A stretch of 64,000 bases of DNA from an uncultured Anaerolinea sp. (GCA_964503625.1 CAZDAU010000004.1:39964-103963); one strand, 5' to 3'; shown: positions 1 through 38,463, numbered from the stretch's first letter. The notes: generated by a model from the letters alone, not told the origin. A program made the numbers and translations.

Positions 1-2
1 TT

Positions 3-266
3 GGCGGGACAAAAACGGTTGCCTATGGCGGCACTCCTGTGATCGTGCTGCGCACCGCTGAAAGCATCCGTGCGTATTCGATGATCTGCACCCACCTCGG
101 CTGTACGGTGCAGTGGCAGGAAGCGCCTAAAGAGTTTTATTGTCCCTGCCATGATGGGCGCTTTGACCAGTTTGGTGAGGTGCTCGCCGGCCCGCCGCCG
201 GTGCCTCTGGAGCAGATCCCTGTGAGCGTGCAAGGCGAGACAGTCACGGTTGGCGAGCCGGTTTGA
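3..266 (+). CDS. Rieske [2Fe-2S] protein (5' truncated by window edge)
   Basis: CTHLGC and CPCHDG Rieske boxes plus GPPP motif; frame is open back to position 3. Confidence 0.9.
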   Translation, partial: GGTKTVAYGGTPVIVLRTAESIRAYSMICTHLGCTVQWQEAPKEFYCPCHDGRFDQFGEVLAGPPPVPLEQIPVSVQGETVTVGEPV

Positions 267-295
267 GTCCGATTGCAAGAGACGACGAGGCGCGA

Positions 296-673
296 ATGAA
301 ACATTACACGGTATTGATCCTTTTCTCTGCCCTGATTTTGCTGGCTGTGCTGGCAACCCTGGCACACCCACAAGCGGCCAGGGCACTGCCGGAATATTCC
401 GCTCAGACCAGCGAGCCCTGTGCCAGTTGCCACCTCAGCCCATCGGGAGGCGGGCCGCGCGGGCTGCGCGGCCAGGCCTGGGTGGGCAGCGGTAAGCCCG
501 GTGCGGTGCCAGCCCTGGCCGATGCCCTGGAACTGCTTGGCATCCACCTGCAGGTGGACGAGCGTGAGTACCGGGCCAGCGGGGGGCCCATCCCGCCAGC
601 CCAACCCGTGCAGGTTGATCCGGCTCAGGCGCAGGACATGCACGATCATCTGAGCAGCTTCGATGGAAATTAG
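296..673 (+). CDS. Small secreted monoheme cytochrome c
   Basis: ATG at 296 gives signal peptide MKHYTVLILF...AARA; single CASCH heme-binding motif. Confidence 0.75.
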   Translation: MKHYTVLILFSALILLAVLATLAHPQAARALPEYSAQTSEPCASCHLSPSGGGPRGLRGQAWVGSGKPGAVPALADALELLGIHLQVDEREYRASGGPIPPAQPVQVDPAQAQDMHDHLSSFDGN

Positions 674-3062
674 CGCTATGGATGCCAACTACACCTCAAA
701 CACAAAGCCGAACCTGACCCGGCGTGAGTTCATCCGGGCCGGAGCAGCCGTCACTGCCTTGGGAGCAGCGGCGCTGACCCTGGGGCAAAAAATGAACACC
801 GCACCTGCGATGGTGGAGACGTTTGAGGAAGCCGTCGTCAAGACGACCTGCGCCTTGTGCCCATCCGGCTGCGGGTTGGATGTGCGAGTGGTCAATGGAA
901 ATGCGGTGAAAGTAGAGGGCAACGCCCTGCACCCGCTCAACCAGGGCGTGTGTTGCTTGCGCGGCCAGGCATCCTTGGAAGCATTGTACAGCCCAGAACG
1001 CCTGGCCCACCCCCGCCGACAAATGGGGAAGCGGGGCAGCGGCGATTGGCAGGAGATCAGCTGGGATGAGGCCCTGGCCCTGGCTGCAGAGAAGCTCGGG
1101 GTGCTGCGCCAAGAGCGCCAGGCGCATCGCCTGGCGCTGGTGCATGGTGAGCTGCGCGGCCAGATGCGCGCCTTTGTTGGCCGCTTTCTGGAGGCTTATG
1201 GTTCGCCCAACCTGATCAGCCGGGAAAGCCTGGCCAGCCAGGCCGCCCGCCAGGCTATGTTCCTCAGCCAGGGGATCAATGGCTTGCCAGTTTACGATCT
1301 TAACAACGCCAACTATGTGATGACCTTTGGCGGCAACCTGCTGGAGACCAGCCGCAATGTGATTGTTAACCTGGAGGCGATTGCGTTTATGCGCCGCGGC
1401 CGCCCGCAGCGCGGCAAGCTGGTGGCAGCGCACCCGCGCCTCTCACTAACCGGGATCAAGGCCGACGAGTGGGTGCCCATCCGGCCCGGGACTTACGCCG
1501 CCCTGGCTCTGGGCATGGCAAACGTGATCATCAACAGCCAGCTCTACGACAAGAGCTTCGTGCATGATTTCACCTTCGGCTTTGAGGATTTTAAGGACGC
1601 CGATGGCAAGACTCACCAGGGATTCAAGAGCCTGGTGCAAGAGCAGTACGACCTGGAGCGAGTGTCGTCTATCACGGGCGTGCCTACCGAGACTATTGCC
1701 AGGCTGGCGGGTGAGTTTGCCACCAACCGCCCGGCAGTGGCCATCCTGCCTAACGAGATCAGCGAGCTTTCCAGCGGCAACAGCCTGTACACCGCCCTGG
1801 CGGTGCATGCCTTGAACGCCCTGGTTGGCTCGATCGACGTTCCGGGTGGGGTCCTGGTGCAGCGCTTCCCGGAGGTGGCCGAATGGCCCGAGTTCCAGCC
1901 AGACGAGGCGGCACAGGCGAGCCTGAGCCAACCTCGGCTGGACGGCGCAGGGTCGTCAGAGCTGCCCCTGGCAATTTCAGCTTACCAAAACCTGGATGCG
2001 GCCATCCTTTCTGGGCAACCCTACCCGCTGGAGATCTTGATTCTGCTCAACGCTGACCCGCTATTCGATGCACCCAACCATGGACAGATGCTGGCCGCCC
2101 TTAACAAAATCCCCTTCATTATCAGCTTTGCGTCCACCCTGGATGAGAGCGCGGCGATGGCTGACCTGATCCTGCCCGCCAGCACTTTCATGGAACAGTG
2201 GGGCGATGACTATATGGAGGGCGTGGGCTACGCAGGGGTCTCTTTGCGGCGGCCAGTCGTCGAACCGGTGCTGGATAATCGCAACCCAGGAGATGTGCTG
2301 TTGGAGCTGGCAGCACGGCTGGGCAGCCCGATGGCCCAGGCATTGCCCTGGAAGGATTACCAGGAAGTGGTGGCCTACCGGCTGGCCGGAGCGCCGCTGG
2401 AATGGGAGAAACTGGACGCCAATGGTTTCTGGGCCGAAATGGTGCACTTCAACGCCGAGCCGGGCAGTCCTGCCTGGGGCCGGGTAGTTGGCCGAGACCG
2501 GCTGCGCGCGCCCAAAGACGGCCGCTTTGACCTGTTCTCGCGCGAACTCTTTGCTCTGTTCGGAGGGGATCAGGCCCAGGACCTGGCCTGCCTGCCACAC
2601 TTTGAACTGCCGGCATCGCTGGATGAAAGCGCTGCAATGGCTCCGGAATACCCCTATTTGCTGATCCCAGGATCGCTGATCACCGAGTCGCAGTCCTGGC
2701 AGGGTATCTTGCCAACCCTGCAAGAATCGCTGGGGTTGCAGGGCAATGTCAAGTGGTCTAGCTGGCTAGAGATCAATCCCAAGGCTGCTGAGGCGCTGCA
2801 CCTGAAAAATGGCGACCTTGCCTGGGTGGAATCGCCGCTTGGGAAAACCCAGGTGCCGGTGCGGGTCTATCCCGGCATCTGGCCAAACGCGGTGTTCATG
2901 CCATTGGGGCAGGGGCGCCACACGATGGTGCAATGGGGACCCAAATCCCCTGAGCAGATGGTGGTAGGCAGCAACCCCAGCCGCCTGGGCCAGATCTCCA
3001 GCGAGCCAATAAGCGGCCAGGCGGTGAGCAGCCCGATTCGGGTAAAGGTGTACCGGGCCTGA
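663..3062 (+). CDS. Molybdopterin oxidoreductase-family subunit, QrcB/ActB-like, Tat-exported
   Basis: TRREFI Tat motif; CALCPSGC...C N-terminal Fe-S motif; KVEGNALHPLNQG; C-terminal molydop-binding-like domain (LEINPKAAEAL). Confidence 0.88.
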   Translation: MEISAMDANYTSNTKPNLTRREFIRAGAAVTALGAAALTLGQKMNTAPAMVETFEEAVVKTTCALCPSGCGLDVRVVNGNAVKVEGNALHPLNQGVCCLRGQASLEALYSPERLAHPRRQMGKRGSGDWQEISWDEALALAAEKLGVLRQERQAHRLALVHGELRGQMRAFVGRFLEAYGSPNLISRESLASQAARQAMFLSQGINGLPVYDLNNANYVMTFGGNLLETSRNVIVNLEAIAFMRRGRPQRGKLVAAHPRLSLTGIKADEWVPIRPGTYAALALGMANVIINSQLYDKSFVHDFTFGFEDFKDADGKTHQGFKSLVQEQYDLERVSSITGVPTETIARLAGEFATNRPAVAILPNEISELSSGNSLYTALAVHALNALVGSIDVPGGVLVQRFPEVAEWPEFQPDEAAQASLSQPRLDGAGSSELPLAISAYQNLDAAILSGQPYPLEILILLNADPLFDAPNHGQMLAALNKIPFIISFASTLDESAAMADLILPASTFMEQWGDDYMEGVGYAGVSLRRPVVEPVLDNRNPGDVLLELAARLGSPMAQALPWKDYQEVVAYRLAGAPLEWEKLDANGFWAEMVHFNAEPGSPAWGRVVGRDRLRAPKDGRFDLFSRELFALFGGDQAQDLACLPHFELPASLDESAAMAPEYPYLLIPGSLITESQSWQGILPTLQESLGLQGNVKWSSWLEINPKAAEALHLKNGDLAWVESPLGKTQVPVRVYPGIWPNAVFMPLGQGRHTMVQWGPKSPEQMVVGSNPSRLGQISSEPISGQAVSSPIRVKVYRA

Positions 3063-3093
3063 TCGATGGCCGGCCAATCTTGAGGAGGTATGG

Positions 3094-3780
3094 ATGTCAC
3101 GCTGGGGTATGGTAATCGATCTGGACAAGTGCTTTGCCTGCCAGAGCTGCACGGCAGCTTGTCGCATGGAAAATAACACGCCCGTTGCTGGCCCAGACCA
3201 GACCGACATGGGCCGGGCCATCCTGTGGAATGAGGTGCTGCCATTTATTGAAGGGGAATACCCGCTGGTGCACGCCACAATGATCCCCCGGCCATGCATG
3301 CACTGTGATAACCCGCCCTGCACCAAGGTCTGCCCGGTTAAAGCAACGTATAAAAATGAAGAGGGCATTGTGGTGGTGGACTATGACCGCTGCATCGGCT
3401 GCCGCATGTGCACCGTGGCCTGCCCCTATGAGGTGCGCTACTTCAATTGGTACCCGCCCGAATGGCCGGAGGCGCTGAAGCAGCACCTTAATCCTGACCC
3501 GGAGACGGCGCCTCGGCCCAAGGGCGTGGTGGAAAAATGCACCTTCTGCATCCAGCGATTGCGCAAAGCGCGCGAGCGCGCCGCTGCCGAGGGGCGGACT
3601 TTCCAGGCCACCGATTATATGCCTGCCTGCGTGCAGACTTGCACCGGTCACGCCCGCTACTTCGGCGACCTGGATGATCCAAACAGCCTGGTCTCAAAAC
3701 TGGCTCACAGTCCGCGGGCTTTCCGACTATTGGAAGAGCTGGGCACCGAGCCCAAAGTGTACTATCTGAAACAGGGGTAA
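3094..3780 (+). CDS. 4x[4Fe-4S] electron-transfer subunit (QrcC/NrfC/DmsB-like)
   Basis: CFACQSC, CMHCDNPPC, CIGCRMC, KCTFC...PAC motifs; GAGGAGGT RBS. Confidence 0.92.
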   Translation: MSRWGMVIDLDKCFACQSCTAACRMENNTPVAGPDQTDMGRAILWNEVLPFIEGEYPLVHATMIPRPCMHCDNPPCTKVCPVKATYKNEEGIVVVDYDRCIGCRMCTVACPYEVRYFNWYPPEWPEALKQHLNPDPETAPRPKGVVEKCTFCIQRLRKARERAAAEGRTFQATDYMPACVQTCTGHARYFGDLDDPNSLVSKLAHSPRAFRLLEELGTEPKVYYLKQG

Positions 3781-3786
3781 GCGACT

Positions 3787-5109
3787 ATGCACCTGCATAA
3801 CCAACACGAAGATACGATCCTGGCGCCCATCCGCAAGCCTTCCATCGTTGACCGGCTGATCTGGCTGTTGCTGGGAGGCCTGTTTGCGGTGGGCCTGGCT
3901 GCCTGGATACGCCAGTATGTGCTTGGCCTGGGCGTGACCGGGCTGAACCGACCGGTCTACTGGGGTGTGTACATCACCAACTTCGTCTTCTTCATCGGCC
4001 TGGCCCACTCCGGCACCTTCATTTCGGCGATCCTGCGCATCGCCGGACAGGGCTGGCGCAAGCCGCTCACCCGGGCCGCCGAGGCCATAACCGTTTTCAG
4101 CCTGCCCTTTGGTGTGGCCTCCATCCTGGCAGACATGGGGCGCCCGGAACGGGTGTTCAATGTTATCTTCTTTGGACGCTACCAATCGCCCATCCTGTGG
4201 GACTTCACCGCTGTAGGGCTATATTTTCTGTCCAGCATTGTTTTCTTTTATCTCTCATTGATGCCCGATATTGCCCTGTGCCGAGACCGGTTAACCAACT
4301 TGCCCGGTTGGCAACAGCGCATGTACAAAATCATGGCTCTGGGCTGGCAGGGGCGACCGGAGCAATATCATCGCCTGGAGCGCGTATTGGACGGCATGGC
4401 AATCTTCATGACCATGCTGGTAGTCACCGTCCACACGGTGGTTTCCTGGATGTTTGGCATGACCCTGCAGCCCGGCTGGCACACGGCGCTGATCGGGCCT
4501 TTCTTCTTGCTTGGAGCGATCCTTTCCGGGACGGCGGCGGTGGTGATCGTGCTGGCAATCCTGCGTAAGATCTATCATTTCGAGCAAATCCTGCACCTGG
4601 GATTGTTCAATTCGATCCGCAAGCTGCTGATCACCTTCACCCTGGGTTGGATTTACATGATGATCGCTGAATACCTGACCACCGGCTATGGCAACATGAA
4701 AGAAGAAATGGCAGTTTTGCTTGACAAGTTCACCGGCACCTATGCCCAGATGTTCTGGGGCATGGTGATCCTGGTGTTCGTGCTGCCCCTGATCATTCTG
4801 GTCTTTAAGGGGAAGAATCACATCGGCTGGATGGTCACGGCAGGCGTGATGATTAACATCGGCATGTGGATCGAGCGCTACATCGTGATCATCCCCAGCG
4901 AGATCAGCCCGCGCCTGATGACCGAAATGGGTCGGGGGATCTATCTGCCCACCCTGACCGAGTGGCTGATCACCCTGTCTTTCTTCAGCGGGATGATCCT
5001 GCTGTACCTCCTCTTCACCCGCTACTTCCCGATTATCCCGATCTGGGAGACTGCGGAAGAAATGCCAGAAGCGCAAACCATTGAAGGCGAATTGGCAGTT
5101 GGAGATTAG
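3787..5109 (+). CDS. NrfD/PsrC-family membrane subunit (QrcD/ActC-like)
   Basis: About 10 hydrophobic segments; WGVYITNFVFFIGLAHSGTFISAIL and DMGRP NrfD motifs. Confidence 0.9.
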   Translation: MHLHNQHEDTILAPIRKPSIVDRLIWLLLGGLFAVGLAAWIRQYVLGLGVTGLNRPVYWGVYITNFVFFIGLAHSGTFISAILRIAGQGWRKPLTRAAEAITVFSLPFGVASILADMGRPERVFNVIFFGRYQSPILWDFTAVGLYFLSSIVFFYLSLMPDIALCRDRLTNLPGWQQRMYKIMALGWQGRPEQYHRLERVLDGMAIFMTMLVVTVHTVVSWMFGMTLQPGWHTALIGPFFLLGAILSGTAAVVIVLAILRKIYHFEQILHLGLFNSIRKLLITFTLGWIYMMIAEYLTTGYGNMKEEMAVLLDKFTGTYAQMFWGMVILVFVLPLIILVFKGKNHIGWMVTAGVMINIGMWIERYIVIIPSEISPRLMTEMGRGIYLPTLTEWLITLSFFSGMILLYLLFTRYFPIIPIWETAEEMPEAQTIEGELAVGD

Positions 5110-5111
5110 GA

Positions 5112-5285
5112 ATGATGGATATTTCAAGCCTGGCTTACGCCTTTATTAATACCCCCGGTGTGGGCGGTGTTGTGATCCTGCTGGTCTTTCTGACTGCGTG
5201 CAGCATCTATTATGCCCTGACACGGTGGATCATCGCCGGCGGCGACCATCCCACGGACAGGAGTAAACAAGAGCATGAAGGCTAG
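5112..5285 (+). CDS. Unannotated 57-aa single-TM protein
   Basis: Hand translation MMDISSLAYAFINTPGVGGVVILLVFLTACSIYYALTRWIIAGGDHPTDRSKQEHEG; GGAG 7 nt upstream; fills the gap between the NrfD stop and the next start. Confidence 0.65.
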   Translation: MMDISSLAYAFINTPGVGGVVILLVFLTACSIYYALTRWIIAGGDHPTDRSKQEHEG

Positions 5286-7239
5286 AGCAATTACCCCTCC
5301 CGCCATGGTTCTCCTGCCAGTGATTCTGATTACGGTGCTGGCGTTCAGCGCATTCTTAGCAAAGGCAGCGCCGACCGAGGCCCAGAAATCCTGGCAGCCA
5401 GGAGCCAATAATCCAACGCCCATCGCCAGCAATTACTGCCTGAGCTGCCACACCCCCGGCGACTCACGCCTGGATGACCCCACAGCCTGGCAGGGAGGGA
5501 TCGCCGCGGCCAGCAACTCGCCTTGCCCAGCAATGAAAACCATCCAGGAAGAGCTATATTACACGGAGCGCTTGCTCCTGGCAATTGACCGCTACCGGTC
5601 TGACCTGCCAGGCTATGTGGACGCCAGCAGCCTGGATGGCAGGCTGGCTGCCGGGCAGCAGGGCTACCTGCGGCTGCTGGACGCGCCGGTGACCAGCCTG
5701 GACGCCTTCACCGCAGAGGCGCAATCGGTGCGCTACAAGCTTGGAAAAGTGTACAGCGGAATTCAGGCGCTGGACGAGGCGGCCAAGCGGAGGCGTGCCT
5801 TGGTGGCGGGGATCGTGGTCAGTTTGGTCCTGCTTGGCTCGTTGGTTTGGGGGTTATACAACACCCGCCACGTGCGGAAAGCGCAGCCTGTCCGCAGCCG
5901 CACGGCCATCTTGGGCGTGGCTGTTTTCTTAATCCTCGTTTTTGTTTTCTTTGCCCTGCCCTTGCTGCGCGTGCCCGCTGAAGAAGTGGTCACCGATGCC
6001 GAAGCTCAGGCGCTACAGACCACCCTGGATACCGCCCAGCGGGCGGCGACGGCCGGCGACCGATCACAGGCGCGCGCCTGGATCCTGGGCAAGGTAGCTG
6101 CAATGTGGGCGCCAATCGACCCGGACAGGGCTGAGGCAATTCTGGCGGAGGCGCAGGCGGCCTCCAAACAACAGCGCGCGAATGCCCTGGCCCTGTGGGG
6201 CGAGGCGGCTTCCGCCCAGGAAGCAGCCACTGGCGACCTGGCAAAGCTGGAGACTGCCGGGCTGATTTCCAATGAGCTCAATGCAACCCGCGCTCGAACC
6301 TGGGATCTGCGCCTGATCGCCCAGGAATGGCAGCCGATTGACCCCGGGCGGGCAGACCAGATCCTGGAAGGCGCCCTGGAAGCCTCCGCACAGGCACAGG
6401 GCATCTACCGCGATCTGGACCGGCGCGGGATTGCCGCAGCGTTTGCTGGATCGGATCTGCAGCGCGCTCTGGAGATTGCCGGGCAGATTCAGGATCCAGA
6501 GCTGCGCGCCTGGGCCTTGCGGGAGATTCGCGGGGATAGCGCCGAGCCGCAGGCGACCGCAGGCGATCCAGCTGCCCCAGAAGCCCAAACCCTGGCCCTG
6601 CTGCGCAGCGGCCTTGCAGGTGACCGGACCATCTGGCCAGCAGCCTGGGAGGCCAGCCTGGCGATCCCAGACGTTTTTGAGCGCGGGCGCGCCCAGGTGG
6701 AAATTGCCCGCGGCTGGGCAGAGAGCGAGCCAGACCAGGCTCTGATGGTTGCTCAACAAATTGAAATTCCACTGCTGCGTGATCGCGCCCTGCGTTTTGT
6801 CATCCTGAAAACGGGAGATGCGTCACTGTTCAGTCAGATCGAAAACCCCTATGATCAAGTGATGGCGCTTACCGCCCTGGGCCGCTACAGCGAAGCAGAA
6901 GCGCTTGTTGGCGACCTGAAAGAGACCTACCCGGTGGTGAAGCTGGTCCAGGCGCTGGCAAAGGTGGACCTGCAGAAAGCCCTGACCCTGGTGGACGGCC
7001 TGCAGCGTGAGGCAGATAAGGCAGAGGCATTGCGGACCCTGGCCGTGCTCAGCCGAGACCCGGCGCTTTTCGAGCGGGCCCTGGGCATGGCGCTGGCAGC
7101 CCGGGTGCGCAACGACCCGCTGGCCCCAGTCCAGGCTTCGCTGGACCTGGCGGATGCTTTTCTGATGATCGATCCTGCCCTGGCCCAACAGGCCCTGGCG
7201 CAGGCCTATGAGATTGCGCAACGGATATCGGTTAAATAA
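5275..7239 (+). CDS. Membrane-anchored monoheme cytochrome c with long Ala-rich helical-repeat domain
   Basis: N-terminal signal/anchor; CLSCH; two internal TM helices; C-terminal ~400 aa of helical repeat-like sequence. Confidence 0.7.
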   Translation: MKARAITPPAMVLLPVILITVLAFSAFLAKAAPTEAQKSWQPGANNPTPIASNYCLSCHTPGDSRLDDPTAWQGGIAAASNSPCPAMKTIQEELYYTERLLLAIDRYRSDLPGYVDASSLDGRLAAGQQGYLRLLDAPVTSLDAFTAEAQSVRYKLGKVYSGIQALDEAAKRRRALVAGIVVSLVLLGSLVWGLYNTRHVRKAQPVRSRTAILGVAVFLILVFVFFALPLLRVPAEEVVTDAEAQALQTTLDTAQRAATAGDRSQARAWILGKVAAMWAPIDPDRAEAILAEAQAASKQQRANALALWGEAASAQEAATGDLAKLETAGLISNELNATRARTWDLRLIAQEWQPIDPGRADQILEGALEASAQAQGIYRDLDRRGIAAAFAGSDLQRALEIAGQIQDPELRAWALREIRGDSAEPQATAGDPAAPEAQTLALLRSGLAGDRTIWPAAWEASLAIPDVFERGRAQVEIARGWAESEPDQALMVAQQIEIPLLRDRALRFVILKTGDASLFSQIENPYDQVMALTALGRYSEAEALVGDLKETYPVVKLVQALAKVDLQKALTLVDGLQREADKAEALRTLAVLSRDPALFERALGMALAARVRNDPLAPVQASLDLADAFLMIDPALAQQALAQAYEIAQRISVK

Positions 7240-7289
7240 AACCCAAAGGTCTCCTACGACCTTCAGGGACAGAAATATGAGGAGCCATC

Positions 7290-7931
7290 ATGGATCTTGT
7301 CAACATCACCCGCATCATCGCTTGGATCGGCCTGGCCCTCGGATGGCTCGGCATCCTGCTGCGCCTGGGCGAGATCATGCGGCGCCCTTTGAACAAAGAT
7401 TACTCTCCGCGGCGCGGCTCTGACCGCCGCGGCGTCCTTTACGCCTTCACCCTGGGCATGGCGCCCTGGGAAAAGGAGAGCACCCGCAAGCACTGGGTGG
7501 CTTACTTGCGGGGCATTTTCTTTCATGTGGGCGTGTTCACCGCTTTCGGCGTTTTTTTGGCCAGCCCGTGGCTGGAGGCGCTGCCGCCCTTTGTCACCTG
7601 GACCGCCCTGGCGCTGACCGCTGCCGGAGCCCTGTTTGGCTTCGCCGGAATCGGCATGCGCTGGATGGGCGAAAACGAGCGGGCGCTCAGCCTGCCAGAT
7701 GATTATTTTTCAGTCTTTTTGAGCTCACTTTTTACGGCCCTGGCCTGCGGCGTACTGTTTTGGCCTGGGCTGCTGGCGGTTTTCTACCTGGCAACGGCGC
7801 TCCTGTGCGTCTATATCCCCTTCGGTAAAATCCGGCATTGTGTGTATTTCTTCTATTCGAAGTTCTTCTTTGGCAAGAACTTCGGCCACCGAGGCGTGCT
7901 TGGCCCAGACAACCAGAAGGCGTTGGAGTGA
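7290..7931 (+). CDS. NarI/HmcE/DsrM-like membrane cytochrome b subunit
   Basis: FFHVG, SLPDDY and YIPFGKIRH motifs; about 5 TM segments; adjacent to a CCG-domain protein. Confidence 0.75.
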   Translation: MDLVNITRIIAWIGLALGWLGILLRLGEIMRRPLNKDYSPRRGSDRRGVLYAFTLGMAPWEKESTRKHWVAYLRGIFFHVGVFTAFGVFLASPWLEALPPFVTWTALALTAAGALFGFAGIGMRWMGENERALSLPDDYFSVFLSSLFTALACGVLFWPGLLAVFYLATALLCVYIPFGKIRHCVYFFYSKFFFGKNFGHRGVLGPDNQKALE

Positions 7932-7937
7932 ATCGAT

Positions 7938-9293
7938 ATGGCAGATGAGAAACCTACGGATGGTAAATTTGCCGCTGAACGCTATCAGCTTACCGATGAA
8001 AAAGCCAGGCTGGCGTTGGATGTGCTGCGCCAGCGGCTGAACCGCCAACTGGAAGCCTCGCTGGAGGTTTGCGTGCGATGCGGCCTGTGCGCCGACTCCT
8101 GCCATTATTATGTGGCTAACCCCAGGCCAGAATACGTGCCTGCTTACCGCGCCGAACAACTGCGGAAAATTTACCGCAAGCTGAGTGATCCGCTGAGCAA
8201 GGTTTCCCCTGGGTGGACTGGAGCCGCCGAGCTGGACCAGGAGATGGTGGAAAAATTGATCTACACCGCCTTTGGCTCATGCACCATGTGCGGGCGCTGC
8301 GTCATCAATTGCCCGGTGGGTGTGGATACCCGGCACATTGTGCGCACCGCCCGGGCAATGCTGACCGCCATCGACATGACACCGGAGGGATTGAGAGCCA
8401 CCGTCAACGTCCATCTGGAAAGCGGCAATAATATGGGCGTTGGCGAGGAAGATTACATTGAAACGGTCAAGTGGATGGAGGAAGAGCTGCAAGCTGAGCT
8501 GGATGATCCCGGATTGACCATCCCCTTCAACAAAAAGCGCGCCCACGTGGTGTACACTTTCAACCCACGGGAGGTGAAATACTTCCCCTACCTGATCCAG
8601 GCGGCGGCAAAAATCTTCACGGCTGCCGGCGAGGACTGGACATTGAGCACCGAGAACTGGGACGCCACCAACTATGGCTTGTTCTCTGGCGACGATGCCG
8701 CCGCGCGGACCATCGCTGGGAACCTGGAGAAAGCGGTGAACAACCTGGGCGCGGATGTTTTGGTGATGGCGGAGTGTGGGCATGGCTACCGCTCGCAGCG
8801 CTGGGAGGCTGAAAACTGGCTCGGCCGCAGCTATCCCTTTAAGGTCACCAGTTTTGTCGAGATGCAGGCTGAATACATCCGCCAGGGACGTTTAAAGCTT
8901 GACCCCATAGTCAATGCCAAGCGGGTGACCTACCACGACCCCTGCAACCAGGCCCGCCAAGGAGGTGTTATCCACGAGCCGCGCTATATCCTGCGCCACG
9001 TAGCTATTGATTTTGTCGAAATGGAGCCGCACGGGGTGGATAACTTCTGCTGCGGCGGTGGTGGCGGGATGCTCTCGATGAGCGAATTTGCGAAAGACCG
9101 CATTGCTGCTGGCAAGGTGAAAGCAGATCAGATCCAGGCCACCGGCGCAGAGATCGTGGCCACCTCGTGCCATAATTGCCTGGACCAGCTTGACGAAATC
9201 CGCCGGCATTATAAACTAAAGGTGAAGGTCCAGAACCTGAGCGAGCTCACCGCTGCTGCGATCGTCTGGACGAAAACCCAGGACAGAAAATAA
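7938..9293 (+). CDS. Heterodisulfide reductase-like Fe-S protein (HmcF/DsrK/TmcB-like)
   Basis: CVRCGLCADSC and CTMCGRCVINCP; CCG domain CX34CCGX37CX2C (YHDPC...FCCGGGGG...SCHNC). Confidence 0.88.
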   Translation: MADEKPTDGKFAAERYQLTDEKARLALDVLRQRLNRQLEASLEVCVRCGLCADSCHYYVANPRPEYVPAYRAEQLRKIYRKLSDPLSKVSPGWTGAAELDQEMVEKLIYTAFGSCTMCGRCVINCPVGVDTRHIVRTARAMLTAIDMTPEGLRATVNVHLESGNNMGVGEEDYIETVKWMEEELQAELDDPGLTIPFNKKRAHVVYTFNPREVKYFPYLIQAAAKIFTAAGEDWTLSTENWDATNYGLFSGDDAAARTIAGNLEKAVNNLGADVLVMAECGHGYRSQRWEAENWLGRSYPFKVTSFVEMQAEYIRQGRLKLDPIVNAKRVTYHDPCNQARQGGVIHEPRYILRHVAIDFVEMEPHGVDNFCCGGGGGMLSMSEFAKDRIAAGKVKADQIQATGAEIVATSCHNCLDQLDEIRRHYKLKVKVQNLSELTAAAIVWTKTQDRK

Positions 9294-9313
9294 CCCCAGC
9301 GTGGAGGAACTTC

Positions 9314-9514
9314 ATGTACATTATTACCATTGACATCGATAAGTGCCAGGCTTGCGGCGACTGTGTGGATAATTGCCCAAACTTGCTCTTCAGCATCACC
9401 GAAGAAGATGGCCGGAAGTACGCCATGGTCAGCGGAGACCCCGACGAATGCATCGGCTGCCTGTCGTGCGAGGCTTCCTGCAGCGAAGGGGCCATCACCG
9501 TCACTGAGCTCTAA
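9314..9514 (+). CDS. 2x[4Fe-4S] ferredoxin
   Basis: CQACGDCVDNCP and CIGCLSCEASC; GGAGG RBS. Confidence 0.92.
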   Translation: MYIITIDIDKCQACGDCVDNCPNLLFSITEEDGRKYAMVSGDPDECIGCLSCEASCSEGAITVTEL

Positions 9515-9548
9515 GCCACTGAGCCTGAGTTAACCAGCGGACGACCCG

Positions 9549-10958
9549 TTGGCCCCAGCCACCCCTCTACCCCGCCTGGTGATCGCCGCCCCACAAGGGC
9601 GCAGCGGCAAAACCACGCTCTCCTTGGGCATCTGCGCCGCGCTGGCCCGGCGCGGGTTGGATATCCAGCCATTTAAAAAAGGACCCGATTATATCGATCC
9701 TTCCTGGCTCAGCGAAGCTGCCGGGCGCGCCTGCCGCAGCCTGGATCCTTTCTTCCTGCCTGGGGCGGCGGCGTTACGGAAGGCACTCTTGAAAGGCGCC
9801 CGCCGGGGCGAGCAGGCAGCCGACCTCTGCCTGGTGGAAGGCAACCACGGCTTGTACGACTCGCTGGAAGAGGACGGCAGCGGCAGCAGTGCAGCGGTGG
9901 CCCGGATCTTGGGGGCGCCGATAATCCTGGTGGTCAATGCAGCGCGCATGTCGCGCAGCGCAGCCGCCATGGTCCACGGCTACCAGACTTTTGAGCCCGA
10001 TACCCCCATTGCAGCCGTCATCCTGAACAACGTTGCCCAGGGCCGCCACCTGGCCAAGCTGCGCCGCGCCATCGAAAGCCACTGCCGCATCCCTGTGATC
10101 GGCGCACTGCCGCGGGACGCCAACCTGACGATCCCAGACCGCCACCTGGGTCTTGTGCCACGGGGCGAGGACCCCGGCCTGCTCCCGGTCATCCAGGCTT
10201 GCCGCCAGGCTGTGGAGCGCTTTGTGGACCTGGAAGCCCTGCTGGCAATTGCGCGTTCGGCGCCCGCCTGGGAAGTCCCAGGCGAGCCGGTCGAAGCATC
10301 CAGACCTGCGCAAGGCCAGCGCAGCCAACCGGTCATCGGTGTGCTGCGTGACCAGGCCTTCTCCTTTTACTACCCGGAAAACCTGGAAGCGTTGGAAGCC
10401 TGTGGGGCGCGACTGGTGTTTATTGATGCCCTGCACACATCCCGCCTGCCCCGGGTTGACGCCCTGTATATGGGTGGAGGCTTCCCTGAGATCTTTATGG
10501 AGACTCTGAGCCAAAACACAGCCTTCCGCCAGGATGTGCGCCAGGCTGCTGAAGATGGGCTCCCGGTGTACGCCGAGTGCGGTGGCTTGATGTACCTGTC
10601 GCAGCGGATAAGATCAGCCGGTCAGCAGGCAGAGATGGCCGGCGTCCTGCCATGCGAAGTGGAGATGACACTCACCCCACAGGGGCACGGTTATGTGTTG
10701 GCCGAATGCACTGGCCAAAACCCGTTTTTTGCTGTTAACACCCGGCTGCGCGGCCATGAATTTCACAATTCACGCCTGACTGGCCTGCCAGAAGGGTGGC
10801 CAGCCGCCCTGCGGTTGGAGCGCGGGGCGGGCATCGGCGGCGGGCGGGATGGGCTGGTCTATCGCAATGTCTTTGCCAGCTACATGCACCTGCACGCTGC
10901 CGGGGCCCCTGGCTGGGCGCAAAGCCTGGTCGATGCGGCCCAGCGTTTTGCGGCCTAA
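9549..10958 (+). CDS. cbiA: Cobyrinate a,c-diamide synthase family (CbiA/CobB; DsrN-like)
   Basis: GRSGKTT, FKKGPDYID, VEGNHGLYD, AFSFYY, AECGGLMYL, GHEFH motifs. Confidence 0.9.
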   Translation: MAPATPLPRLVIAAPQGRSGKTTLSLGICAALARRGLDIQPFKKGPDYIDPSWLSEAAGRACRSLDPFFLPGAAALRKALLKGARRGEQAADLCLVEGNHGLYDSLEEDGSGSSAAVARILGAPIILVVNAARMSRSAAAMVHGYQTFEPDTPIAAVILNNVAQGRHLAKLRRAIESHCRIPVIGALPRDANLTIPDRHLGLVPRGEDPGLLPVIQACRQAVERFVDLEALLAIARSAPAWEVPGEPVEASRPAQGQRSQPVIGVLRDQAFSFYYPENLEALEACGARLVFIDALHTSRLPRVDALYMGGGFPEIFMETLSQNTAFRQDVRQAAEDGLPVYAECGGLMYLSQRIRSAGQQAEMAGVLPCEVEMTLTPQGHGYVLAECTGQNPFFAVNTRLRGHEFHNSRLTGLPEGWPAALRLERGAGIGGGRDGLVYRNVFASYMHLHAAGAPGWAQSLVDAAQRFAA

Positions 10959-11168: not shown

Positions 11169-11768
11169 ATGATTTACCAAAAGGTCGTCGAATACGTTGA
11201 TATCCAGGCGCCGCGCCAGGAGGTGTTCAGCCTGATCACTCATATTGAGCGGCGCTTACAGCTCAGCCCATTGTGGGGCGTAGCCAGCCTGGAGGCCAAA
11301 AACGGTAATTACCCCCAGGTGGGCAGCACCTACAGGGTGCGCCTGGTGGAAGGCGAGCAGCCACCCTACGAAACCATCGTCACCGCTTACGAGCCTTATC
11401 AAAAATTCGCCTATTGCCTGGACGTGGACCGGCAGACAAGCGTCACCTGGACCCTGCAAGAGATCAAGATGGGCACCCGGCTGACCTATGAAGAAATGTT
11501 TTTGGTCGATGAAGAAGCAGAGCAGGACTTTATTAAGTCGGTGCGCGGTGTGGTGCACAATTGGCTGGCAAACATCCAACGCTACGCTGAACTGCGCCAG
11601 AGCAAAGCCAAGCGCCTGGCGCGCTGGCTGGTGGATCATCTGTATCTAGGCCTGCGCCCTGACCAACGGCGGGTGATCCTGACGATCTTGTTCATGCAGG
11701 CCGTGGCCGCAATCGCCTTCATCATGGCTGCCCTGGGCATGGGGCTGGTTTCCCTGTTTATTCGGTGA
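11169..11768 (+). CDS. SRPBCC/polyketide-cyclase-fold protein with C-terminal TM helix
   Basis: VDIQAPRQEVF start typical of SRPBCC; hydrophobic C-terminus. Confidence 0.6.
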   Translation: MIYQKVVEYVDIQAPRQEVFSLITHIERRLQLSPLWGVASLEAKNGNYPQVGSTYRVRLVEGEQPPYETIVTAYEPYQKFAYCLDVDRQTSVTWTLQEIKMGTRLTYEEMFLVDEEAEQDFIKSVRGVVHNWLANIQRYAELRQSKAKRLARWLVDHLYLGLRPDQRRVILTILFMQAVAAIAFIMAALGMGLVSLFIR

Positions 11769-11860: not shown

Positions 11861-12676
11861 CTAAGAAGGCTCGTAGCAGCACCGGAAGCCAGTATCATCA
11901 CTGCGGTGCATGGGCGCGGCCCAGCTTCGGTAGGCACAGCGATTCAGGAAGCGGCCTTCCCGCCAGGAACCGCCGCGCAACATGGCTTTATCAAAGGCGG
12001 CTTCGGTAGAATTTACCATCGAGGTACCGCCGGTTTCATGAAAGCGTGGCAGCGCCGAAAGCGTATCCAGCCGGTGTACCAGCGCCTCCCGCCCATCCTC
12101 AGGGTCGTAGGGATACGGCCGATATAGCGAAGAGACCCACTCCTGCACATTGCCCGCCAGGTCGGCCACGCCATAGGGGCTGTCGCCCTGGGGCGAGTAC
12201 TTTGTGACTGGGGTGATAGCTAGCGGCACGCTGCGGTCACGAGTCTCTTTGCCGCTGGCGTTATTGCAACGCCCAGGCTCCCACTGATTCCCCCAGGGGT
12301 ACACCCGCCCATCCGTCCCGCGGGCGGCCTTCTCCCATTCCGGCTCGGTCGGCAGGCGCACCGGCAGGCCGGTGACCTGCCTGGCCCACAGGCAAAACGC
12401 GGCCGCATCCAGGAAGTTCACCCCCACCACGGGGTGGTCGGCCTGGTCATCCGGGAACTTGCCGCCCGCCCAGAATAATGGCGCCCGGTGGCCGGTGGCC
12501 TGGATAAACAAGTGGTACTGAGCGTTTGTAACCGGATAGCGCATGATGTAGAACTCAGAAACCATCAGAATGTGCTGGGGCATCTCAGCTTCAGAGGCTT
12601 CCGGGTCTGCCTGGCGCTTGCTGCCGATGATGAATTCACCAGCCGGGATGTAAACAAAATTCAAATCTAATTGCAT
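11861..12676 (-). CDS. Formylglycine-generating enzyme (SUMF1) domain protein
   Basis: IPAGEFIIGS, YPVTNAQY, RLPTEPEWEKAARG, YPWGN, LAGNVQEW, RGGSW, TGFRC. Confidence 0.88.
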   Translation of the reverse strand: MQLDLNFVYIPAGEFIIGSKRQADPEASEAEMPQHILMVSEFYIMRYPVTNAQYHLFIQATGHRAPLFWAGGKFPDDQADHPVVGVNFLDAAAFCLWARQVTGLPVRLPTEPEWEKAARGTDGRVYPWGNQWEPGRCNNASGKETRDRSVPLAITPVTKYSPQGDSPYGVADLAGNVQEWVSSLYRPYPYDPEDGREALVHRLDTLSALPRFHETGGTSMVNSTEAAFDKAMLRGGSWREGRFLNRCAYRSWAAPMHRSDDTGFRCCYEPS

Positions 12677-12715: not shown

Positions 12716-13375
12716 TCAGGCGATCCCGTTGGGGGTAACCCAGCCCGCCCGAGCGGCGTAACGCAGCAGATCAACACTGCTGCGCACACCAACTTTGGTC
12801 ATCAGGCTGCTCCGATGGACTGAAACCGTTTTGGGGCTGATGCCCAGAAGATGGGCAATTTCTTTATTACTCTTGCCTTCAATCAAGTAATGGAGGACCT
12901 GCATCTCACGCTGGGTTAAACTCACTTTGGGGTCCGGTTCTTTGGCCTGCGGCTGGGTCAGGTTTTCAATCACCTGACGGGTAATACTGGCTTCCAAATA
13001 GGCGCCATGCTCAAAAACCTGATGAATAGCCGTCACCACTTCCCGGCCGCCTGAACGTTTTAGCACATACCCCGACGCCCCAGCGCGCAGCATTGGCTCA
13101 ACGTACTCGTGGTCATCATGCTGCGTCAGGATCAACACGCGCACCTGTGGGAAACGAGCTTTGATTTGCCGGGTCGCCTCTAATCCATCCATCTCCGGCA
13201 TGGAGACATCCATCAGCACCAGGTCGGGCAATAAAGCCTGGACTCGTTCAATTGCTTCGCGGCCATTGGCGGCCTCGCCCACCACATGGATATCCTCCTG
13301 CCGCTCGAGCAGCGAGCGGATACCATCCCGCAAAATTGCGTGGTCATCCACCACCAAAACCCGAATATCAGCCAT
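12716..13375 (-). CDS. NarL/LuxR-family response regulator
   Basis: REC domain (VVDDH, LMDVSMP) plus LuxR HTH (LTQREMQVL...SNKEIA). Confidence 0.93.
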   Translation of the reverse strand: MADIRVLVVDDHAILRDGIRSLLERQEDIHVVGEAANGREAIERVQALLPDLVLMDVSMPEMDGLEATRQIKARFPQVRVLILTQHDDHEYVEPMLRAGASGYVLKRSGGREVVTAIHQVFEHGAYLEASITRQVIENLTQPQAKEPDPKVSLTQREMQVLHYLIEGKSNKEIAHLLGISPKTVSVHRSSLMTKVGVRSSVDLLRYAARAGWVTPNGIA

Positions 13376-16228: not shown

Positions 16229-17314
16229 CTACAAGTCAGCAACTTTGGCCATTGGGCCAGGCCACTCGCAATAACGCGCCCGGCCGCAATGCTTGCACAC
16301 ACCCTCTTCCAGCAGTTTCTCGTAAACGCCCTCAAACTCGCCCATCAAATCATACCATTCAAAGGTGCGCCCAATCGTCACCCGCAGGGGTGTTTTGGGC
16401 ATCTTGAAAGCTTGCCGGGCCTTTGACCCATCGAAATAGAACATCTTGGATTCCAAGCGCAGGCGGTTTCCGGTGAGCGGAACCGGGCCGCTGCTCTGCG
16501 GTTGGAGTAAATCAGTCAGGCCGGCGACGAGCGAGACCTGCCAACGGGACATGACCTTGAGCTTCATCCCACAGCCGACCACATTGGCAATCGTGCGGTA
16601 GAGCTGTAAATAAGTCATATTTTCGCCAGCCAGGATGTAGCGCTCTCCGACAATGCCTTTGAGAGCCGCTTCAATGTGTCCTTGGGCAACATCGCAGATC
16701 GGGACCACATTCACCCCGCCGGGGGGAATGAGCGGCGGCACGCAGTGTTTGACCACCTCCACCACCATGCCGCTGGACACTTTGCGGATATCCCTAGGAC
16801 CAATCACCGTGGTCGGGTTAACAATCACCGCCGGCAGTCCTTTTTTGACCAGATCCAGGACAATCTTCTCGGCCAGGAACTTGCTGTGCCCGTAGACGAA
16901 ACGCTCCGGTTTGACGTTGAAAGTATAGCTCTCATCAACAATTACATCTGGGTGAATGCCCATTGCAGCGGTGGAGCTTGTGTGGACCACCCGCCCCACA
17001 CCAGACCGCAGGGCGGCTTCCATCACATTGCGGGTGCCCTCCACATTCACCCGGTACATCCAGTCAACGCCCTGCCGCCAGTAATCCACCACCCCGGCGG
17101 CGTGGAAAAGGACATCAATGCCCTGCATCGCCTGGGGGAGGGTTTCCGGCTCCAGGATGTCTCCGGTCATGTATTCAAAAGGCCCGCCTTCCAGCAAGAT
17201 CCGGTTCGCCCCAGGCCGCTCCAGGATGCGCACCTGCCAGCCATGCTCGATCAGGCGCAAGGCAATGTTCGACCCCAGGAAACCCGTGCCGCCGGTCAGG
17301 AGCGCGACCGCCAT
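16229..17314 (-). CDS. NAD-dependent epimerase/dehydratase (extended SDR, DFR/HpnA-like)
   Basis: TGGTGFLG, HAAG, HTSS, YGHSK motifs. Confidence 0.88.
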   Translation of the reverse strand: MAVALLTGGTGFLGSNIALRLIEHGWQVRILERPGANRILLEGGPFEYMTGDILEPETLPQAMQGIDVLFHAAGVVDYWRQGVDWMYRVNVEGTRNVMEAALRSGVGRVVHTSSTAAMGIHPDVIVDESYTFNVKPERFVYGHSKFLAEKIVLDLVKKGLPAVIVNPTTVIGPRDIRKVSSGMVVEVVKHCVPPLIPPGGVNVVPICDVAQGHIEAALKGIVGERYILAGENMTYLQLYRTIANVVGCGMKLKVMSRWQVSLVAGLTDLLQPQSSGPVPLTGNRLRLESKMFYFDGSKARQAFKMPKTPLRVTIGRTFEWYDLMGEFEGVYEKLLEEGVCKHCGRARYCEWPGPMAKVADL

Positions 17315-18900: not shown

Positions 18901-19550
18901 CCACCATTCTCCACACTCGCCGATAAGATTTGTTGCGCCCTGGCACGAGCAGCCTGCTTTCCGGCAGACTTCAGGATCTCCAACAGATCGGAATCCACAA
19001 GGCGCAAAGCGGCTTCCAGGCGCGGCTCACCTGGGGCAAAGCGGGCCTGCAGCTCGGGCCTCAGCTCCGCCAGCAGGCTGGCCAGATCGCCGTATTCCGG
19101 TCCAATAAGCGCTTCCAGTTTCTCGCGCAGGCGGCGCGCCAGGGCCGGGCTGGCTCCACCGGTGGTGATGGCAACTTTGACTTCGCCGCGCTGCACAACC
19201 GCCGGGACAATGAAGTTGCTGTGCCTGGGATCATCCACCACATTGACCAGGCAGCCGCGCCGGACCGCTTCGCTCCACACCGCCCCGTTGACCGGCGGGT
19301 CATCGGTGGCAGCAATCACCAGGAACGCGTCTGCCAGGTCGCCCGCCTGGTACAACCGTGGGACCATCTCCAACCCGGCGTACAAACCAGCCAGGTGATC
19401 AAACTCAGCGCAGAACTGTGGACTGATGACGATAACCGGCGCGCCGGCCTCCAACAGCGCCTCGGCCTTGCGCGCCGCAACCTTGCCGCCGCCAATCACC
19501 ACCACCCGCCGGTTTTCCAAGCCAACCAGACAGATTGGATAAGTCTTCAC
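18897..19550 (-). CDS. Precorrin-2 dehydrogenase / sirohydrochlorin ferrochelatase (CysG-N, SirC/Met8-like)
   Basis: VVIGGGKVAARK, LVIAATDD, VNVVDDP, ITTGGASP. Confidence 0.9.
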   Translation of the reverse strand: MKTYPICLVGLENRRVVVIGGGKVAARKAEALLEAGAPVIVISPQFCAEFDHLAGLYAGLEMVPRLYQAGDLADAFLVIAATDDPPVNGAVWSEAVRRGCLVNVVDDPRHSNFIVPAVVQRGEVKVAITTGGASPALARRLREKLEALIGPEYGDLASLLAELRPELQARFAPGEPRLEAALRLVDSDLLEILKSAGKQAARARAQQILSASVENGG

Positions 19551-19778
19551 GGACTCCTTTGTACCATAGTTGTTATCTTGTCGTCAAATGATAGAAGTCA
19601 TGCTTCGTGGATTATTCTGTTCATCAACTTTCAAGTCTCACTCATCCAATCATGATCTGCTACTCATCAAATCCTTACCATAAGCTCTGGATTTCTCTAT
19701 TTGCAACTGGATTTATCGACGTTATAGTATTATTATTGTAATTAAAAACCAATCTTAACCCGAAAACGGCCGATCATC

Positions 19779-21131: not shown

Positions 21132-21143
21132 AGAAAAAACTGA

Positions 21144-22088: not shown

Positions 22089-22119
22089 AGACTGTGGCAC
22101 AAACAAAAATCGTTAAACG

Positions 22120-23193: not shown

Positions 23194-23220
23194 CTGTTTA
23201 TCGATATGAGGTGATATTGT

Positions 23221-29009: not shown

Positions 29010-29043
29010 TGGGTCACCTCACTGGATGGAGATCTGGTCCTAC

Positions 29044-35746: not shown

Positions 35747-35766
35747 CCTAATGCTCCATGAGCCAA

Positions 35767-35862
35767 CACTACAATTTGACCAATTATAAATGAGATTTCA
35801 AAGCCACAACCGAAAGATGCGACAAATGACATAGCTAAAACCCATTCCCCCCTGCGACAAAT
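35767..35862. promoter_or_regulatory. Divergent promoter region with TATAAT (minus, 35788-35783) and two TGCGACAAAT boxes
   Basis: TGCGACAAAT at 35818 and 35853; motif set shared with 43854-43959. Confidence 0.6.
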
Positions 35863-35996
35863 TCCTCTTGTCCCTTGTCTGTGCACATGATAAGATTTCA
35901 AGAGACTGAGTGCGGGTGCGGCTTTTGCGCCCACCTGTTTTTTGACTTTCCAACCTGGCAGGTGTTGCCTGCCATTTCCAGCCTGGGACCGCTTGC

Positions 35997-38201: not shown

Positions 38202-38229
38202 ACGCGCTTACTCAGCTTGAATTGACCAC

Positions 38230-38238
38230 TGATATAAT
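38230..38238 (+). promoter_or_regulatory. Extended -10 promoter element
   Basis: TGATATAAT about 30 nt upstream of ATG 38268; AAAGGA RBS between them. Confidence 0.55.
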
Positions 38239-38450: not shown

Positions 38451-38463
38451 CTGAAAACCAGGC

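Follow-up and report, generated by a model that had tools for sequence, protein, structure and literature searches.

An apparently undescribed variant of the Dsr membrane complex in a dsr operon of Anaerolineae

What complex is encoded by a tightly packed set of respiratory genes in an uncultured Anaerolinea sp., and does it belong to any of the known quinone-linked membrane systems? The genes occupy positions 3-10958 of a 64,000-nt stretch (GCA_964503625.1 CAZDAU010000004.1:39964-103963), hereafter the window, and a preliminary description had read them as a hybrid of the Qrc and Hmc complexes accompanied by a Rieske protein and a cytochrome c. The window begins mid-operon, and the region 3-10958 makes up the distal part of a single long dsr operon from a freshwater Anaerolineae (Chloroflexota) bacterium. 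The module that follows dsrABDC and dsrMK in this operon is, on balance, probably a DsrMK-associated replacement of DsrJOP, similar to alternative complex III (ACIII) and Qrc and working within one enlarged complex. This variant of the Dsr membrane complex is real and conserved and, it appears, so far undescribed, with a function proposed from sequence and synteny only.

A dsr operon with a conserved distal module

The region is filled by eleven genes, all on the + strand:

3-266, +, C-terminus (87 aa) of the Rieske protein; PF00355, CTHLGC/CPCH
296-673, +, c1, a 125-aa monohaem cytochrome c; one CxxCH, Sec signal
663-3062, +, MoL, a molybdopterin-oxidoreductase-family subunit with a twin-arginine translocation (TAT) signal; PF04879, PF00384, PF01568
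3094-3780, +, FeS, a 228-aa four-cluster ferredoxin-like subunit; 16 Cys, no signal peptide of its own
3787-5109, +, NrfD-family integral membrane subunit (NrfD), ActC/DsrP-like; PF03916, 101 bits
5112-5285, +, sTM, a 57-aa single-pass membrane protein; one transmembrane (TM) helix, overlaps Big by 11 bp
5275-7239, +, Big, a 654-aa haem/TM/solenoid protein; one CxxCH, 3 TM helices
7290-7931, +, HmcE/TmcC-like membrane protein, accessory; 4 or more TM helices
7938-9293, +, HmcF/TmcB/DsrK-like cytoplasmic CCG iron-sulfur protein, accessory; PF02754 and Fer4_8
9314-9514, +, Fdx, a 66-aa 2x[4Fe-4S] ferredoxin; Fer4 families
9549-10958, +, DsrN-like CobB/CbiA-family a,c-diamide synthase; TIGR00379 (cobB), 460 bits

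Domain types were taken from Pfam and NCBIfam, which confirmed the parts list of the preliminary description, and membership was judged by the NCBIfam curated cut-offs. The compact same-strand arrangement noted at that stage (gaps of 2-50 bp or 11-bp overlaps) is borne out by the distances between successive genes, which are 29, -11 (overlap), 31, 6, 2, -11 (overlap), 50, 6, 20 and 34 bp. No terminator-like site was found on the + strand in any intergenic gap of window 3-10958, the G+C content of third codon positions is 0.70-0.77 across the seven large open reading frames (ORFs) of the region, and a gap of 210 bp follows the CobB-family amidase gene that ends at 10958.

The missing 9.7 kb upstream are supplied by L084, a 50.6-kb JGI (Joint Genome Institute) contig identical to window 1-10673 (0 mismatches); a Logan contig, L001, is likewise identical to the window across 4657 bases. 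On L084 a YeiH-like gene is followed by dsrA, dsrB, dsrD, dsrC, dsrM, dsrK, a gene for a dihaem cytochrome c (c2) and the start of the Rieske gene, and the full order is therefore dsrABDC-MK, c2, Rieske, c1, MoL, FeS, NrfD, sTM, Big, a second HdrED-like pair, ferredoxin and DsrN. DsrA (564 bits, cut-off 393), DsrB (518 bits, cut-off 341), DsrC (122 bits, cut-off 53.5) and DsrK (515 bits, cut-off 400) all exceed their cut-offs, and DsrC keeps both C-terminal cysteines, ending in ...GACKIAGLPKPTGCV. For DsrM the DsrM model is the best match, at 160 bits against a cut-off of 300, with PF02665 (NarI-type cytochrome b) annotated; dsrD is encoded between dsrB and dsrC.

A bc-type cytochrome b, which the preliminary description had suggested looking for upstream, is thus not what precedes the Rieske gene; its place is taken by dsrABDC, the NarI-type dsrM, dsrK and the dihaem c. 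No PetB/QcrB-type cytochrome b gene is adjacent, each gene from YeiH through to dsrN has been assigned, and because no unassigned gap of 400 bp or more recurs in the core, none is hidden there either. The role of defining CCG partner thus falls to the upstream DsrMK and not to the HmcEF-like pair inside the window. The last two genes within the coordinates of the preliminary description are the usual ferredoxin and DsrN of dsr clusters.

The YeiH-family gene (PF03601, putative sulfate exporter family; L084 2687-3799) lies directly 5' of dsrA in almost every locus, and its product may serve this dsr cluster as a dedicated carrier for sulfite, sulfide or sulfate.

A scan of the species representatives of GTDB returned 422 related stretches, the best 80 of which were analysed (loci are cited as L plus a number). 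This carried out the synteny comparison proposed in the preliminary description and recovered the same gene order in about 50 Chloroflexota loci, mostly of Anaerolineae: YeiH-dsrABDC-MK-c2-Rieske-c1-MoL-FeS-NrfD-sTM-Big-[second HdrED-like pair]-[DsrE-like]-Fdx-DsrN-(HemA). Such conservation of order in dozens of species-level genomes is far beyond chance. Among the 47 loci with at least 8 kb of upstream sequence, DsrAB is present in 42, DsrK in 43 and DsrD in 42. Where at least 3.5 kb upstream is available, the Rieske protein, the dihaem c and DsrK occur all together in 51 loci and are all missing from 8, with no locus in which they are split. Downstream (n=44), Big is found in every locus, Fdx in 41, DsrN in 40, and sTM in 37; 33 loci have a DsrE-like gene and 23 the HmcEF-like pair. 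The window itself has no DsrE-like gene, and neither DsrL nor DsrEFH is present in the loci analysed. More than 120 clusters of MoL proteins are found at 64% identity or above, and those named for an organism come from metagenome-assembled genomes (MAGs) of Chloroflexota, Chloroflexi or Anaerolineae, as the earlier guess at the phylum would have it.

A second class of loci, with MoL at 44-50% identity, was found in MAGs of Litorilinea, Ardenticatenales and Thermoflexales. These loci encode MoL, FeS, a longer NrfD, a c1 extended by a class-I cytochrome c domain and a fusion of a NarJ/TorD-family chaperone with a ferredoxin, and have no dsr genes, Rieske or c2. Since they carry c1-MoL-FeS-NrfD by itself, these four genes are an evolutionary unit, while the Rieske protein and c2 travel with DsrMK.

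Subunits of the module and their relatives

The complete Rieske gene (L084 9498-9971) encodes a protein of 154-157 aa, 157 aa as read on L084, and an RR motif followed by one TM helix predicts a TAT-exported, membrane-anchored protein. PF00355 matches at 51 bits and the best NCBIfam models, those of b6f/bc1 Rieske proteins, at 65-71 bits, below their cut-offs; in the PDB its nearest relatives are the Rieske proteins of b6f and bc complexes, with one of the b6f type first (77 bits). The CTHLGC and CPCH motifs, disulfide cysteines included, do not vary among 59 orthologues, and by these sequence features the protein is assigned to the respiratory type. Established mutagenesis of the bovine protein has identified Ser163 and Tyr165 as residues that raise the Rieske potential. 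The equivalent positions here are Gly and Phe, which points to a centre of low potential.

In 59 loci c1 keeps an invariant ALPEY...EPCxxCH...GGG motif; the protein has no Pfam, NCBIfam or significant PDB match, and its family of 269 proteins is named only 'hypothetical' or 'mono/diheme cytochrome c'. The 59 orthologues always end in Gly-Asn and have no conserved Met or second His as distal haem ligand, so that the Tyr of ALPEY or a residue from another subunit would be the only candidates. c2 is a membrane-anchored dihaem cytochrome c of 100 aa with two CxxCH and two conserved His. It occupies the dsrJ position directly after dsrK and matches the DsrJ model faintly (E 0.07, 13.4 bits against a cut-off of 100); beyond this, PDB and family searches returned nothing significant for c2 or for sTM. 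The latter has no family match and falls below the 60-aa threshold of the ORF list, yet it is conserved in the relatives, with a G.GG...Y..L.RWI motif in 40 loci.

The third cytochrome, Big, has no Pfam or NCBIfam match, and its family comprises only 167 of 1.84 billion cluster representatives. Its AlphaFold2 (AF2) model (pLDDT, the predicted local distance difference test score, 89.9) consists of a signal/TM helix, a haem c domain, a TM hairpin and an all-alpha solenoid of about 410 aa, and by the positive-inside rule both soluble parts would face outward. A Foldseek search with this model gave generic TPR/solenoid matches only, with TM-scores of 0.26 or less, and hence no specific structural relative and no functional lead. 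The invariant residues of Big are C55, C58 and H59 (CxxCH) and C84, and its haem c is possibly His/Cys-ligated. Such ligation is a hallmark of DsrJ (PMC10861901), and the invariant Cys near the haem is here found in a protein unrelated to DsrJ.

The FeS and NrfD subunits display a double affinity. In the PDB the best match of FeS is the C-terminal half of ACIII ActB (183 bits), which covers FeS over its full length, while PsrB and ArrB cover its first half only; by NCBIfam, QrcC leads with 269 bits (cut-off 400), followed by DsrO with 192 bits, close to its cut-off of 200. The 16 conserved cysteines are arranged in four motifs. FeS has no signal peptide and is proposed to be exported together with MoL. 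NrfD, with about 10 hydrophobic segments, matches ACIII ActC at 198-216 bits across about 400 residues and PsrC with nothing at E <= 0.01; the NCBIfam scores are 104 bits for DsrP (cut-off 350), 59 for HybB and 31 for QrcD (cut-off 570), all below cut-off. The affinities to ActC by PDB and to DsrP by NCBIfam fit published work in which ActC and DsrP are grouped together (PMC8076601). NrfD is presumably the quinone/quinol site of the module.

MoL keeps the TAT signal, the cysteines of the FS0 [4Fe-4S] cluster and all three molybdopterin domains. Its NCBIfam scores for PhsA (308 bits, cut-off 694) and QrcB (289 bits, cut-off 440) are both below cut-off; ArrA scores 215, PsrA 193, ActB about 60 and AioA 32 bits. 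The cysteine that ligates Mo in PsrA (Cys173) and in ArrA is replaced by G, A, D, N or S in the 120 homologues listed and in 79 of the 80 loci, the sole exception being L083, whose MoL is 40% identical. Two conserved acidic residues of a further motif are changed, the canonical DPR...PGTD reading HPR...PGTY. Judged from the sequence, the loss of the ligand fits a scaffold role such as that of QrcB and ActB. The AF2 model of MoL (pLDDT 49, from a 15-sequence alignment) was unusable. Public names for the protein are 'selenocysteine-containing dehydrogenase' or 'molybdopterin-dependent oxidoreductase', that of the Rieske protein is bc1/b6f subunit, and a review lists psrA/phsA/sreA for the MAG group that includes Ca. 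Desulfolinea nitratireducens.

An alternative is that MoL is an active Mo/W enzyme, either a polysulfide/thiosulfate reductase of the Psr/Phs type, as the public names imply, or an AioA-like protein whose ligand-free Mo centre passes electrons to the Rieske protein. The retained domains, export signal and FS0 cysteines, the best matches to ArrA, PsrA and PhsA and the psrA/phsA/sreA listing would agree with this, as would the NarJ/TorD-family chaperone of the relatives without dsr. In arsenite oxidase AioA, in addition, the ligand position is occupied by Ala and the partner is a Rieske subunit. The dsr-type operon, in contrast, has no chaperone gene; the ligand position is variable and is never Cys, selenocysteine or a fixed Ser or Asp; the near-universal DPR...PGTD is altered; the similarity to AioA is negligible; the Rieske protein is nearer to the bc/b6f type than to AioB; and the membrane subunit is ActC-like, not PsrC-like. 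An active enzyme is therefore considered very unlikely. The Psr/Phs reading was rejected as the leading one since the ligand Cys is missing, and Psr/Phs membership fails on that replacement, on the PhsA score and on the absence of a PsrC match for the ActC-like NrfD.

The chaperone domain of the relatives without dsr is fused to a 2x[4Fe-4S] ferredoxin and encoded 3' of NrfD (L064 6938-7957, L076 14756-15790, L066 5806-6840). It hints that their MoL may still receive a cofactor, though the ligand position there is Asn.

Association with DsrMK and electron flow

Set beside the known systems, the operon resembles several and is, as far as its sequences allow a verdict, a member of none. It shares with DsrMKJOP a dsr cluster that has bona fide dsrABDC and dsrK and a probable dsrM, a membrane-anchored cytochrome c after dsrK, an outward-facing FeS subunit with an NrfD subunit of the 10-TM type, the ferredoxin and dsrN that follow, and the presumed task of linking menaquinone with DsrC-trisulfide chemistry. 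It differs in lacking a trihaem DsrJ, in FeS and NrfD scores that stay under the cut-offs of DsrO and DsrP, in five additional conserved subunits (Rieske, c1, MoL, sTM and Big) and in a second HdrED-like pair that is often added. A canonical dsrJ was also sought downstream in L022 as a reference, and none was found.

With ACIII (ActABCDEF; 6F0K, 6LOD, 6BTM, 8K9E), which is known from Chloroflexota, the module has in common the NrfD and FeS nearest to ActC and to the C-terminal half of ActB, a TAT-exported Mo-family subunit without the Mo-ligand residue, and monohaem c subunits. In contrast to ACIII, MoL and FeS are encoded by separate genes, MoL is nearer to ArrA/PsrA than to ActB and keeps the FS0 cysteines, the partners are a Rieske protein and DsrMK, and pentahaem ActA, the second NrfD-like subunit ActF and ActD are missing; in roughly 50 loci no pentahaem gene lies within 10 kb on either side and there is only one NrfD gene. 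QrcABCD, the menaquinone reductase of Desulfovibrio, shows the same order of cytochrome c, Mo-like, FeS and NrfD subunits, likewise with Mo-like and FeS proteins separate, and supplies the best NCBIfam match of FeS (QrcC) and the QrcB match of MoL. However, all scores are below the cut-offs, the cytochrome is monohaem as opposed to the hexahaem QrcA, the 16 Cys of FeS (four cubane sites) stand against one [3Fe-4S] cluster in QrcC, and MoL keeps FS0, whereas QrcB is listed without cofactors (PMC8076601).

For Hmc and Tmc the likeness lies in the membrane and CCG pair within the window, which is best matched by the HmcF, TmcB and TmcC models, and in an order (FeS, NrfD, small TM, ..., b-type membrane protein, CCG) that parallels HmcB-F. 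Here the difference is the lack of a 16-haem HmcA or TmcA, no multihaem gene being present in the loci examined; HmcB scores 66 bits (cut-off 420), and the pair is accessory and exchanged in some relatives for another DsrMK-like pair. A literal hybrid of Qrc and Hmc was rejected, all cut-offs being missed and the HmcEF-like pair being optional; with every Qrc, Hmc, Tmc, DsrO and DsrP model below its curated cut-off, the preliminary label overstated membership. The operon also recalls bc1/b6f complexes in its respiratory-type Rieske with TAT signal, TM anchor, CTHLGC, CPCH and disulfide cysteines, with genes of cytochromes c next to it and that of a probable dihaem cytochrome b (DsrM) nearby, and differs from them in the lack of a PetB/QcrB-type cytochrome b, the NarI type of DsrM and the Gly and Phe at the potential-raising positions. 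With AioAB it shares the closeness of the Rieske protein (as for AioB) to a Mo-family protein that has no Mo ligand residue, although MoL is not AioA-like. In sum, the system appears to work like DsrMKJOP, ACIII and Qrc, and is counted as a member of none because trihaem DsrJ, pentahaem ActA with ActF, hexahaem QrcA and HmcA are absent and the cut-offs are missed.

DsrMKJOP functions as an oxidoreductase between menadiol and DsrC trisulfide in which the part played by JOP is an acknowledged enigma; proton pumping or quinone cycling of a bc1-like kind has been proposed for it (PMC10861901). The replacement of DsrJOP by the present module in an enlarged DsrMK complex, the reading preferred here, is supported by the link of the Rieske protein and c2 to DsrK and by the position of the module inside the operon. 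DsrMK and the subunits encoded in the window would assemble as one transmembrane complex, in which menaquinol would be oxidised by the NrfD subunit, at its P-side site, and/or by DsrM. An outer-face route would run through the FeS chain, the c haems of three cytochrome c subunits and the Rieske centre, held by MoL and Big as scaffolds. The b haems of DsrM would then carry electrons across the membrane as far as the non-cubane cluster of DsrK, and there the DsrC trisulfide made by DsrAB would be reduced. The extra module might then serve energy coupling, by a redox loop, by proton translocation through the ActC-like subunit or by quinone cycling. The earlier idea of a chain joining extracytoplasmic carriers, quinone and cytoplasmic thiol/disulfide chemistry thus holds in outline. 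The sequences show which genes are present, in what order, how conserved they are and how they occur together; the physical association, the electron path and its direction are what we infer.

It is unlikely, by comparison, that the module acts independently, as an ACIII/Qrc-like quinol:cytochrome c (or cytochrome c:quinone) oxidoreductase that is merely co-transcribed with the dsr genes and fills or empties the menaquinone pool, the DsrC trisulfide being reduced by DsrMK alone. DsrMK alone is enough in many organisms (PMC10861901; PMC4959651), c1-MoL-FeS-NrfD-sTM stands alone in other Chloroflexota, where c1 has its extra class-I cytochrome c domain, and the nearest relatives of NrfD and FeS are ActC and ActB. 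The strict tie of the Rieske protein and dihaem c to DsrK (51 loci with all, 8 with none, 0 split) argues against independence, as does the insertion of the module between dsrK and the ferredoxin/dsrN of the dsr cluster and not beside the operon; moreover, neither ACIII nor Qrc has anything that corresponds to Big or to the Rieske protein.

Several points nevertheless weigh against the enlarged DsrMK complex. The potential of a Rieske centre is normally far above that of menaquinone or of a plausible DsrC-trisulfide couple, and a linear path through the Rieske protein into DsrK would for this reason run uphill. The occurrence of the c1-MoL-FeS-NrfD-sTM unit without dsr, Rieske and c2 implies that it can work without DsrMK. 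In L029 (CP070811.1, chromosome of Anaerolineales bin12), c1-MoL-FeS-NrfD-Big have no dsr, c2 or Rieske upstream, even though the MoL, 67% identical to that of the window, belongs to the dsr-type clade; owing to masked N runs, this may equally be a rearrangement, a loss or an assembly problem. MoL may still bind a Mo/W cofactor. The sequence is present in three freshwater DNA runs and in no RNA run. Finally, the direction may be sulfite reduction or sulfur oxidation: DsrD argues for reduction, while the DsrE-like gene of 33 of the 44 relatives, not found in the window, and the 'chimeric' Dsr proteins reported from Chloroflexi (PMC10504309) would be compatible with oxidation.

In the oxidative direction the operon would be a Dsr-plus-complex-III unit for sulfur oxidation or disproportionation. 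Electrons from DsrC sulfane sulfur would pass to DsrK, DsrM and the quinone pool, and from there through the ActC-like subunit, the FeS chain, the Rieske protein and the c haems to an oxidase or a nitrate/nitrite reductase. Rieske proteins and c-type haems are typical of chains that oxidise quinol and reduce an acceptor, and the frequent DsrE-like gene would suit this use. DsrMK and DsrN of Chloroflexi are reported to branch beside oxidative types (PMC10504309), and the operon of L014, Ca. Desulfolinea nitratireducens, an organism reported from suboxic water with oxidases and nitrate reductases (PMC8359478), shows this same architecture. This direction is nonetheless unlikely: DsrD, a marker and activator of reductive DsrAB, is encoded here and in 42 of 47 relatives, the window has no DsrE-like gene, the loci have no DsrL or DsrEFH, and Chloroflexota with DsrD are classed as reductive (PMC10591310).

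An elaboration that we regard as quite improbable is that the Rieske protein forms, with DsrM and/or the ActC-like subunit, a new bifurcating site of quinol oxidation, one electron going to the Rieske centre and c haems and the other through the b haems to DsrK for the DsrC trisulfide. If true, it would be a natural case of the bc1-like quinone-based bifurcation that has been proposed, and never shown, for DsrMKJOP.

Surveys of Dsr note Chloroflexota with DsrD (PMC10591310) and the chimeric Chloroflexi proteins, and a dsr cluster of Dehalococcoidia has been described with only dsrABCMK, dsrD and dsrN (PMC4959651). The main dsr surveys mention neither a Rieske protein nor the Mo-like module. 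In the searchable literature, whose coverage leaves out subscription-only papers, no description was found of this arrangement or of a Rieske protein with dsr, Chloroflexi, NrfD or ACIII, which agrees with the earlier surmise that the system may be undescribed.

Dissimilatory sulfite reduction is a major and ancient respiratory process. A whole clade of widespread Anaerolineae in which the DsrJOP half has been exchanged for a different and richer module would be a natural experiment: its parts (the Rieske protein, the ActC-like subunit and the Mo-like scaffold) behave in known ways in other complexes and could show which functions are required beside DsrMK. The system could also serve as a concrete test case for quinone cycling or bifurcation. 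In addition, the current public names (bc1/b6f, selenocysteine-containing dehydrogenase, psrA/phsA/sreA) can mislead metabolic predictions for Chloroflexota MAGs.

Accessory genes and the rest of the window

The HmcE/TmcC-like protein has no Pfam match and scores far below the cut-offs of TmcC (31.6 bits, cut-off 240) and HmcE (24 bits, cut-off 275). Its three invariant His and a PF.K(I/L).H motif common to DsrM (here PF.KIRH) suggest that it is probably a b-type cytochrome; as hhalign against DsrM gives a probability of only 49%, its assignment to the NarI family rests on weak matches, the shared motif and gene context. Its CCG partner matches HmcF (320 bits, cut-off 750), TmcB (291 bits, cut-off 735) and DsrK (272 bits), in each case below cut-off, and is 32% identical to the true DsrK of the operon. 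It is a second HdrD-like subunit, and the pair is accessory. Some loci without this pair have a radical-SAM gene and a different DsrM-like/DsrK-like pair instead. In L055 (16086-20087; also L043, L050, L052, L054 and L058) Big is followed by a radical-SAM-like ORF, a 306-aa NarI-family protein (PF02665), a DsrK-like protein of 550-650 aa and then the DsrE-like gene.

A hairpin with a 10-bp stem is located at window 7242-7267, within the 50-bp gap between Big and the HmcE-like gene. A T-run follows it on the - strand only, and the hairpin may act in processing or stability where core and accessory genes meet.

In 41 of 44 loci the ferredoxin (9314-9514) comes after the membrane module and before DsrN. 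DsrN, above the 261 cut-off of the cobB model, closes the cluster in 40 of 44 loci, is considered a CfbB/CbiA derivative (PMC10504309) and, from its dsr context, would amidate sirohaem. Behind dsrN the window encodes an SRPBCC/AHSA1-like protein with a C-terminal TM helix (11169-11768, +) and an FGE-sulfatase-domain protein (11861-12676, -). This pair is also found 3' of the operon in the relative L002, and the SRPBCC gene in further close relatives (L004, L005 and L039). Two NarL/LuxR-type two-component systems, each a response regulator with a large GAF/PAS or Cache histidine kinase, are encoded at 12716-16193 (-) and 28341-31557 (-); the former adjoins the operon region, a position kept in L002.

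Between them, at window 17296-28245, lies a tetrapyrrole biosynthesis cluster:

17296-18900, -, CobA/HemD fusion
19779-21131, HemA
21144-22088, HemC
22120-23193, HemB
23221-24456, radical-SAM protein
25553-26965, HemY-like flavin amine oxidase
26962-28245, HemL-like aminotransferase

In most relatives the gene directly behind dsrN is HemA, an arrangement that ties the supply of haem/sirohaem to the operon. Further downstream, window 32412-41315 looks like a peptide or bacteriocin export set: it encodes an ABC exporter that includes a C39 peptidase domain (32412-35255, -), another ABC ATPase protein (35997-38201) and a pair of long pentapeptide-repeat proteins (38464-41315). At window 42000-56000 the GC content drops from about 0.60 to 0.50-0.55; with an epimerase (50993-51970) and a sugar transferase (53020-54546), this segment may be a cell-envelope or exopolysaccharide island.

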